The notes beneath the pieces are model-generated. The model made no database searches. It was not told the origin of the DNA and worked only from the letters and a program-made list of their open reading frames with translations. Of a stretch of 64,000 bases of DNA, positions 11,899 to 14,104 are shown one piece after another; positions within the stretch are counted from its first letter, which is position 1, and every line of letters begins with the position of its first letter. This DNA comes from Candidatus Woesearchaeota archaeon (GTDB lineage Archaea; Nanobdellota; Nanobdellia; Woesearchaeales; GW2011-AR4). Both the position numbers and the translations under genes were made by a program. The DNA is taken from contig JACPJQ010000005.1 in the NCBI GenBank assembly GCA_016187465.1, positions 163,183-227,182 on the forward strand, read 5' to 3'.

Positions 11899-12500
11899 CT
11901 TTTTTGTCTATTGCATGCCGTCCTTAATGCTATTAATAAATCTTTTGGGGGCATTTGTTTTAGGGTGTTCCATTATAAAATTTTTATATAAACTATATAA
12001 ACCAAAACCGTGAAAATCGTAACGAAAAGCGCAACATTTAAATATAACTTGGTAATAGTGACGGATATAAAATGGCAAATAGCATAAAGTGGATGGACGT
12101 GTGTATTCTAAAGCTGATTAGGCCTATCCACGCAACAGCTGCAACAAAAGCTGTGATGTGCTGATTGCCAATTTTAACCTTACTTTTTTTCTAAAACAAG
12201 AATGGAGGTGTTAAAATTGGTGCAAAAGACTAAACTAAGCAATGCGGAACGGGAAGATTTTGAGGATTTCCTCAAAAACCTGTCAGATGTAGATTTCAAC
12301 AACCGCAATGAAGAATCGAAATATAAGTGAAAATATGGGCAAACATAAAAGTTTAAATATGCATTGGCTTAACAGCCGTGTCATGATTAGGCAAGATTAT
12401 TATAGATGCTATTGTTGTTGCTAGTTCTTATAATCGTATTAGATAACTTAATATTTATCACCTATTTCATTCAAAAATCAATAAACAAAATCACTTTCAA

Positions 12501-12645
12501 GCGAGGATAGCCAAGCGGCTAAGGCGAGCGTTTTAATCGCTTAATGCGATTTAACTCGATGCTGCAAAGCAGCATTACGATCCGCAAGGAGATGACTTGT
12601 TGCGCAAAGCCCGCTTATTCGCCGGTTCGAGTCCGGCTCCTCGCT
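12501..12645 (+). tRNA. tRNA, proposed tRNA-Cys(GCA) interrupted by two introns (12531-12560 and 12568-12609)
   Basis: 7-bp acceptor stem GCGAGGA/TCCTCGC, D arm GCC-AAGCGGCTAA-GGC, T arm GCCGG-TTCGAGT-CCGGC, followed by a T-run. Splicing the two BHB-compatible introns gives a 73-nt tRNA with anticodon arm AGCGG-CTGCAAC-CCGCT and discriminator U73. That this is a tRNA is near certain; the isotype and intron map come from my manual fold. Confidence 0.7.
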
Positions 12646-12706
12646 TTTTTTATTTAAGACTAGGCAATAAAAACAATTAAAAACCCATTAAACAATTTCT
12701 TATAAA

Positions 12707-14104
12707 ATGCCATTAAAACTTTACAACACGCTGACCAGAAAAAAAGAAAATTTCAAGCCCATTAAAAATAAGATTGTTAATTTGTACTCATGCGGACCCA
12801 CGGTTTATGACTATGCTCACATAGGCAACTTCAGGGCATATGTTTGCGTTGATGTTCTAAAGCGCTATCTGAAATACAAGGGCTTCAAAGTGAAGCACAT
12901 AACAAATATTACAGACGTCGACGACAAAACTATAAAGGGCGCAAAACAGGAAGGAATTTCACTGAAGGAGTTTACAGAAAAATATGAGAAAGCTTTCTTT
13001 GACGATATTTCAATATTAAACATAGAGAAGGCTGACACCTACCCAAAAGCGACTGAACATATCAAAGAGATGGTGGGCATTGTAAAAAAATTATTGAACA
13101 AAAAGATAGCCTATAAAAGCGAAGACGGAAGCGTCTATTTTGACATATCCAAATTTAGGGACTATGGAAGATTATCGCATATTAAAATAGAAGAACTGAA
13201 AGAAGGCGCCAGAGTCAGGCATGACAGCTATGAAAAGGAAGAAGGGAGGGATTTTGCCCTGTGGAAAGCCTATGACAAAGAAGATGGTGATGTGCTCTGG
13301 GAGACAGAAATTGGACGTGGAAGGCCAGGCTGGCATCTTGAGTGCTCTGCAATGTCGATGAAATACCTTGGCAGCCATTTTGACATCCACGCCGGCGGAG
13401 TTGACTTAGTTTTTCCTCACCATGAGAATGAGATTGCGCAAAGCGAGGCATTTACCCGAAAAAAATTCGTCAATTACTGGTTCCACAACGAGCATTTGCT
13501 TGTTGACGGCCGCAAAATGTCCAAGTCATTGGGAAATTTTTATACATTGAGAGATTTGTTGATGAAAAAGTATTCTCCCAAAGCGATAAGGTATCTTTTA
13601 TTGTCAGCGCATTACAGGATGCAACTTAATTTTACAGAAGAAAGCATCAAAGCAGCTGAAAATTCAATCCAAAGATTGGAAGATTTTATTATTAAATTAA
13701 AAGAGATAAAAAACAATGCTGAAAACAAAAACATTGACAGGATAATTCAAAAAACAAAAAAACAATTTGACGACGCGATGGACGACGACTTAAACATAAG
13801 CGTGGCATTGGCACATATTTTTGAATTTGTTAAGGAAATAAACACCTCTATGATGGAAAACAAAATCGGAAAAAACAATTCCAAAAAAATAATTGATTTC
13901 ATGCATGACATTGACAAAATTCTTGGAATTCTTAAGGAAAAAGAAGAAAAATTAAGCCCTGAAATAAAAAGATTGATTGACGAAAGAGAAAAGGCAAGAA
14001 AGGAAAAAGATTTTGCAAGAGCAGACAAAATAAGGGAAGAATTAAAGCAAAAAGGAATAATTCTCGAGGATACAAAGGAAGGGGTTAGGTGGAAGAAGTG
14101 TTAA
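12707..14104 (+). CDS. cysS: Cysteinyl-tRNA synthetase
   Basis: 465 aa. HIGH-type motif [14 protein letters not shown] motif RKMSKSLGN, and the CysRS-typical [10 protein letters not shown]. Confidence 0.97.

Follow-up and report, generated by a model that had tools for sequence, protein, structure and literature searches.

A tRNA-Cys(GCA) gene with two predicted bulge-helix-bulge introns and a seven-nucleotide middle exon upstream of cysS in a Woesearchaeota archaeon

Introduction

Archaeal tRNA genes that carry several introns are typical of Thermoproteales, and a 2014 review gives a maximum of three introns per archaeal tRNA (PMC4033280). Introns at position 30/31 and pairs of canonical and non-canonical introns have been documented (PMC4090602). 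The tRNA-Cys gene described here resembles the multi-intron tRNAs of Thermoproteales (Sugahara et al. 2007/2008; PMC4090602, PMC4033280) in combining an intron at 37/38 with a non-canonical bulge-helix-bulge (BHB) intron at a position, 30/31, that is listed explicitly for that group, in being missed by standard scanners, and in the recurrence of related intron sequences among different tRNA genes. The main differences are the lineage, DPANN (Woesearchaeota) rather than Crenarchaeota, the sole EndA found, a single 200-aa subunit rather than an alpha2-beta2 pair, and the number of introns, which reaches four per gene in this genus as compared with the reviewed maximum of three.

The preliminary description of this DNA placed multi-intron tRNAs mainly in Thermoproteales and some other archaea, a distribution that has to be widened to include DPANN (PMC5829648). 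Increased tRNA disruption and incomplete tRNA sets have been reported for DPANN genomes, a Woesearchaeota genome included, with single-subunit versions of EndA accompanying the disrupted tRNA genes (Kaneta et al. 2018, PMC5829648). That study covers the same superphylum at the level of genome statistics, whereas the present locus, its junctions and the gain and loss of its introns across a genus are not described there. Published work therefore already covers introns at 30/31, tRNAs with two introns and the disruption of tRNA genes in DPANN, and the locus, although well documented, is not surprising to a specialist.

Introns at position 37/38 can also house box C/D sRNAs, as in euryarchaeal tRNA-Trp (Clouet d'Orval 2001) and in the 66-nt intron of N. 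equitans tRNA-Met (Randau 2012, PMC3491384). As in those introns, a K-turn-forming box motif lies beside sequence complementary to the gene's own anticodon arm in the 37/38 intron described here. In contrast to them, this intron is 42 nt long and has a single internal C'/D'-like K-turn, no terminal C/D pair, and 5 to 7 nt of complementarity.

A further comparison is offered by the leaderless polycysteine short ORFs of mycobacteria, which are cysteine-responsive attenuators (bioRxiv 10.1101/834739). A putative ORF at this locus is likewise very short, ends in a run of Cys codons, and immediately precedes cysteine-related genes on the same strand. Here, however, the host is an archaeon, the putative leader precedes tRNA-Cys and cysS rather than biosynthesis genes, and no terminator/antiterminator pair was identified.

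Organization of the tRNA-Cys gene

In the 64-kb window, which is the whole stretch of DNA that was analyzed, direct reading of the sequence located all of the elements that the preliminary description had assigned to 12501-12645 at the coordinates that it gave (Table 1). The 7-bp acceptor stem (12501-07/12638-44) is followed by the D-arm, and the 3' portion comprises the variable loop TATTC (12616-20), the T-arm GCCGG-TTCGAGT-CCGGC (12621-37), and a T at the discriminator position (12645). Between G30 (12530) and C38 (12610) lie 79 nt in place of the 7 nt that are expected. Removal of two blocks from this region, introns 1 and 2, yields a 73-mer with U73 and the anticodon arm AGCGG-CUGCAAC-CCGCU, composed of a 7-nt loop and a 5-bp stem. 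This 73-mer is called tRNA-Cys(gca) by ARAGORN, and if only the block 12531-12560 is removed, the call is Cys(gca), with an intron of 42 nt at 37/38. The gene sequence lacks CCA. Transcription in archaea terminates at oligo-T, and the run of seven T residues at 12646-12652 is likely a transcription stop.

The genome (1.62 Mb in 8 contigs, 38% G+C, 93% complete) was searched by blastn for a second tRNA-Cys-like locus, and none was found; because 93% of the genome is covered, a second tRNA-Cys could still lie on the missing DNA. Judged from its sequence and conservation, the region 12501-12645 is very probably a functional tRNA-Cys(GCA) gene, apparently single-copy, in which two BHB introns interrupt one precursor.

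Table 1. Features of the tRNA-Cys/cysS locus (coordinates are those of the window)
Feature	Coordinates	Strand	Description and basis
Second small ORF	12202-12330	+	42 aa, MEVLKLVQKTKLSNAEREDFEDFLKNLSDVDFNNRNEESKYK; GGAGGTG upstream
Longer small ORF	12335-12424	+	MGKHKSLNMHWLNSRVMIRQDYYRCYCCC, then stop; contains the mini-ORF core 12383-12424
Mini-ORF	12383-12424	+	13 codons, MIRQDYYRCYCCC, then stop; 76 nt upstream of the tRNA; ends C-x-C-C-C
Exon 1	12501-12530	+	tRNA positions 1-30: acceptor 5' strand, D-arm, G26, A27-G30 of the anticodon stem; sequence, Rfam tRNA CM alignment, blastn of the spliced tRNA (matches 1-30)
Intron 1	12531-12560	+	30 nt, position 30/31; BHB with a 4-bp central helix and an inner hairpin
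Exon 2 (micro-exon)	12561-12567	+	7 nt, G31 C32 U33 G34 C35 A36 A37; bears the GCA anticodon
Intron 2	12568-12609	+	42 nt, canonical position 37/38; relaxed BHB
K-turn-like core in intron 2	12577-12598	+	ACGA, hairpin TCC-GCAA-GGA, bulge GAU, GA
Exon 3	12610-12645	+	C38, anticodon stem 3' strand, variable loop, T-arm, acceptor 3' strand, U73; sequence, CM alignment, blastn (match 38-73)
Seven-T run	12646-12652	+	immediately 3' of the discriminator; sequence
cysS	12707-14104	+	cysteine--tRNA ligase, 465 aa; TIGR00435, 544 bits

Comparison with orthologous loci

The locus was sought by blastn in 60 related genomes and was found in 31 of the 36 genomes of the same genus. The blastn match skips exactly 12531-12560 in six genomes and exactly 12568-12609 in two. 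Intron presence and absence were read in 29 same-genus loci (individual orthologous loci are denoted by L numbers). Intron 1 is absent in 12 of these, with AGCG contiguous with GCTGCAA, and intron 2 is absent in three (L026-L028), with GCTGCAA contiguous with CCCGCT; L021 has an intron 2 of only 15 nt, and the remaining same-genus loci hold both introns. Outside the genus, further families of this order contain 73-nt tRNA-Cys genes without introns (L049, L050, L051) and a one-intron tRNA-Cys gene (L046), each upstream of cysS. Two of the three intronless orthologues, L049 and L051, were aligned with the spliced product, and both align gap-free.

Comparison with these intronless relatives determines each junction to single-nucleotide precision. 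Either intron is missing exactly at the junctions first proposed, which fits the described positions and lengths (30/31, 30 nt; 37/38, 42 nt), whereas the ambiguity of register that had been suspected from the GCAAAGC repeat does not hold. The 7-nt middle exon stands as described: GCTGCAA is invariant across all orthologues and is joined to exon 1 or to exon 3 where relatives lack an intron. The proposed isotype (Cys, GCA, U73) is likewise borne out by the call for the 73-mer and by the orthologues, since in-silico splicing, possible for 12 of them, yields Cys(gca) in every case. Compensatory changes in the tRNA body of these 12 are observed at pairs 10-25 (GC/CG) and 50-64 (AT/TA). The anticodon loop itself differs between lineages, with A37 C38 in the present gene and G37 A38 in the neighbouring genus (L049) and in L050.

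Structure of intron 1

In intron 1, CGAG (12525-28) and CTCG (12555-58) form the central helix, which is flanked by the bulges CG|T and AT|G, and 12532-40 and 12546-54 form an inner helix with 8 of 9 positions paired. The central helix has four of four pairs in all 17 orthologues that bear intron 1, the bulges are conserved as CG|W and AT|G, and the inner helix varies from 4 to 10 bp with many compensatory changes. In L014, exon C25 is replaced by G and the intron G by C, such that CGAG/CTCG becomes GGAG/CTCC. Across the orthologues, 97.7% of cells are paired, as compared with 22-42% when the partner is slid, and compensatory changes are present in four pairs. The outer helix comprises only about 2 bp, and intron 1 is therefore of the relaxed HBh' style. 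The BHB geometry that had been attributed to both introns stands for intron 1 by virtue of its central helix, whereas intron 2 adopts it in a relaxed form only.

Structure of intron 2

The central helix of intron 2, CTGC (12562-65) with GCAA (12604-07), has 3 of 4 pairs and is flanked by the bulges AA|A and AG|C, and the inner helix (12569-74/12598-603) comprises 6 bp. The central helix is weak: among 24 orthologues, the position opposite C32 fails to pair in 23 and that opposite U33 in 8. Across the orthologues, pairing in the inner helix amounts to 92%, without double changes, and the outer helix is the anticodon stem, itself interrupted by intron 1. The minimum-energy fold of the precursor favours a local hairpin, GCUGC-AAA-GCAGC, over the intron-2 BHB; this fold reproduces the acceptor and T arms and not the BHBs, and is thus useless for placing junctions. 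In L018, a tandem duplication of exon 2 and the first half of intron 2 results in an 82-nt intron with a spare GCTGCAA.

The core of intron 2 is K-turn-like and shows the canonical arrangement of a stem, a 3-nt bulge and predicted tandem sheared G.A pairs. The consensus runs from YGA through a stem of 2-7 bp to RAU and GA, and the GA, RAU and GA elements are present without exception in all 24 orthologues. In the stem, each of the four pairs has changed on both sides among these orthologues, and the stem is 93.6% paired. The bare pattern matches at 458 sites genome-wide and is thus frequent by chance, so that support for the K-turn comes from its conservation and not from its single occurrence. 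A scan with this pattern was too unspecific for counting K-turn introns in the genome. K-turn-like box motifs were also seen in the introns of a tRNA-Tyr gene (G000 C3:377122-377244 (-); UGA...GAUGA) and a tRNA-Leu gene (C5:7497-7665 (-); GUGAUGA...UGUGA). A literature search for stand-alone K-turns in tRNA introns returned C/D-sRNA cases only. The conserved K-turn provides a concrete hypothesis for RNA-level experiments.

The K-turn might be a minimal half guide of the C'/D' type, on which L7Ae, Nop5 and fibrillarin would assemble, with GCAGC pairing with G31-C35 and C32 receiving a 2'-O-methyl group. In the local hairpin, which is the minimum-energy fold, C32 lies opposite G12572, the base five positions upstream of the D'-like box. 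The spacing GCAGC-N5-GA is free of indels in 24 of 24 orthologues, whereas the rest of the intron has indels, and GCAGC is invariant although its partner strand in the BHB varies. In addition, fibrillarin and Nop5 are encoded in the genome, and guide RNAs within the introns of tRNA-Trp and N. equitans tRNA-Met serve as precedent (PMC3491384). Against this, GCAGC can also be accounted for by its role as a strand of the inner BHB helix, guide and target are connected by a 3-nt loop, and there is one K-turn with no terminal C/D pair. Known C/D guides have roughly 10 bp of complementarity to their targets. The duplex here would have only 5 to 7 bp, well below that, and on this account we consider a guide function unlikely. 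In box C/D sRNAs, a terminal C/D motif is combined with an internal C'/D' motif, and the guides are about 10-12 nt long; intron 2, which measures 42 nt, has a single K-turn and only 5 to 7 nt complementary to positions 31-35, and is for this reason not classed as a C/D sRNA.

Processing of the precursor

One EndA gene was found in the genome. It encodes a 200-aa protein in which the N- and C-terminal domains (PF02778, PF01974) are united, and its best PDB matches, 3IEY_A and 1A79, are the catalytic subunit of N. equitans and the alpha4 enzyme of M. jannaschii. Single-subunit EndA is the class classically linked to strict BHB recognition, and its occurrence in this genome counts against the proposed splicing; DPANN versions are, however, reported to accompany disrupted tRNA genes (PMC5829648). 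Genes for RtcB, L7Ae, fibrillarin and Nop5 are also present. The N-terminal part of the RtcB match (G000 C4:157792-159170 (+)) contains 5 in-frame stops (2 TAG, 3 TAA).

In the proposed pathway, a single precursor would be transcribed, EndA would cleave each 3-nt bulge between its second and third bases, and RtcB would ligate the exons. CCA would be added after splicing, since none is encoded. The fold of intron 1 uses C25-G28, and A27 and G28 are also required by the anticodon stem enclosing intron 2, which makes the two folds mutually exclusive. The introns would thus be removed one after the other, and the 7-nt exon would always remain tethered on one side. L7Ae could bind the K-turn of intron 2, which might act as a folding aid, stabilize the excised intron, or serve as a minimal self-guide.

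Upstream open reading frames and cysS

Four of the last five codons of the mini-ORF upstream of the tRNA specify Cys. The mini-ORF is found in 26 of 29 genus loci, among which the stop codon differs and indels preserve the reading frame. The pN/pS ratio is 0.16 for the 13-codon core and 0.87 for the in-frame extension upstream of it, which indicates that only the last 13 codons of 12335-12424, starting from the inner ATG, are under purifying selection. In another family (L050), a different version, the 9-codon MMVNCICCC followed by a stop, is found in the same place. The mini-ORF block may overlap a TATA-like box (ATTATTATAG) or the tRNA promoter. Inspection of the spacer between the mini-ORF and the tRNA revealed no convincing hairpin pair or long T-run, and no alternative terminator/antiterminator or other device that would couple the ORF to a target was recognized there. 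A genome-wide search for Cys-rich ORF tails gave no second copy. The Cys-rich tails upstream of cysS in L039 and L054 were rejected as leader ORFs, as they are out-of-frame readings of a cysteine-synthase-like C-terminus.

A role of the putative mini-ORF as a cysteine-sensing leader, as in mycobacteria, is speculative and unlikely. Also unlikely is a three-part cysteine unit, in which the mini-ORF would sense charged tRNA-Cys, ribosome slowing at the terminal Cys codons would alter the expression or processing of tRNA-Cys and cysS, and the intron-2 K-turn would be a minimal self-targeting guide for methylation of C32. If true, an archaeon would have control of the leader-peptide type, descriptions of which have so far come from bacteria; like the K-turn, the mini-ORF with its Cys codons can be taken to RNA-level experiments as a concrete hypothesis. 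For the 42-aa ORF further upstream, the C-terminus seems conserved in relatives, where it is visible as conservation in an overlapping frame. Neither of the two small upstream ORFs has a Pfam or NCBIfam match.

The ATG of cysS at 12707 follows 61 nt after 12645, as the preliminary description had noted. Within the genus, tRNA-Cys and cysS are conserved neighbours, as they are in at least four further families that were sampled (L046, L049, L050, L051). The neighbouring proteins of 256 aa and 516 aa gave no Pfam or NCBIfam match. In the Protein Atlas, the CysRS clusters nearest to the cysS product are almost all bacterial.

Gene status and annotation

Standard tools do not recover the tRNA-Cys gene. 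ARAGORN with default settings and Rfam at the gathering threshold report no tRNA in the whole 64-kb window, and a local Rfam search with laxer filters places tRNA (RF00005) at exactly 12501-12645 with 41.4 bits, as compared with the gathering score of 29, and with a 75-nt insert in the anticodon loop; the whole-window Rfam search thus missed the gene because of its filters. When introns are allowed, ARAGORN reports tRNA-Stop(tta) with one 74-nt intron, i(38,74). A miscall of this kind had been foreseen from a hairpin that mimics a UUA anticodon loop. Among the orthologues, ARAGORN calls all single-intron genes Cys(gca) and three two-intron genes Stop, Arg(tct) and Gln(ttg), three differing isotypes that mark these calls as artefacts of the variable intron-1 sequence.

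The situation is similar genome-wide: 10 tRNAs exceed the Rfam cut-off, 18 are found by ARAGORN with introns, nearly all of them intron-bearing, and a scan for acceptor stems with T-arms gives about 20 candidates. Roughly half of the tRNA set is still hidden in this 93%-complete genome. Automatic annotation would leave the genome with no cysteine tRNA or with a false UAA suppressor, and stop-codon recoding could be wrongly suggested as a result. The same problem applies to most tRNAs of this genome, of which only the 10 pass the Rfam cut-off.

The interrupted gene could in principle be a decaying tRNA pseudogene filled with junk inserts, the real tRNA-Cys being encoded elsewhere or imported. 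The incompleteness of the genome (93%) and the failure of standard tools to detect most of its tRNAs make a hidden second copy conceivable. The pseudogene reading is nevertheless very improbable. Over some 30 species, the exons are conserved and their stems show compensatory changes while the introns diverge freely, the BHB helices are maintained by covariation, the locus is syntenic with an intact cysS, and no other tRNA-Cys-like sequence was found.

A suppressor-type tRNA with a UUA anticodon that reads UAA and has a single 74-nt intron is called by ARAGORN -i, and the corresponding intron, 12537-12610, looks weakly BHB-like by eye (TTTT/CAAA with 3 of 4 pairs, 3 inner pairs), but this reading has a negligible probability and is already contradicted by the comparative data, as it requires a 71-nt tRNA without position 26, the UUA sits within intron 1, which is absent in 12 orthologues and differs in sequence in others, three two-intron orthologues give three isotypes while every single-intron one gives Cys(gca), and the ORFs of the window read normally with UAA as stop.

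Additional introns in related genomes

Relatives of the two-intron tRNA-Cys(GCA) gene carry introns at further sites. An intron at 59/60 has a UUCG/CGAA helix that is paired at four of four positions in 13 of 16 carriers and at three of four in the other three, and further introns are observed at about position 8/9 and in the D-loop. In L005, L008, L010, L011, L012 and L016, the tRNA-Cys gene contains four BHB-type introns (about 8/9, 30/31, 37/38, 59/60), which is more than the maximum reviewed; these genes lie at about locus position 1440-1700, and that of L016 at about 500-800. With one tRNA gene, one to four introns at fixed sites, and about 30 species to compare, intron gain and loss can be studied in this genus as a clean natural experiment. 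The pattern can be used to test how BHB introns spread and how they are handled by an endonuclease of the single-subunit type.

In L002, L005, L008, L010-L012, L016, L017, L021, L024 and L026-L028, the acceptor 5' strand (GCGAGGG) occurs a second time, 6-60 nt upstream of the real one, often with a GCAAAG...CTTTGC hairpin between the two copies. A BHB intron was tried as an interpretation of the duplication and rejected, as no register gives complementary central helices. The duplicate may be a structured leader, a scar left by an insertion, or an intron of a new type.

Recurring intron families are found in different tRNA genes, at G000 C4:53886-54031 (-), C3:52480-52641 (+) and C3:192634-192827 (-), and in the T-loop introns of L011 and L016. 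One family has the form CAACCTTTT...AAAAGCTTGAC.AAAA and another the form GCATGCAATG.GGGA...CGGAACGATGG. Their recurrence suggests intron transposition, as in Thermoproteales.
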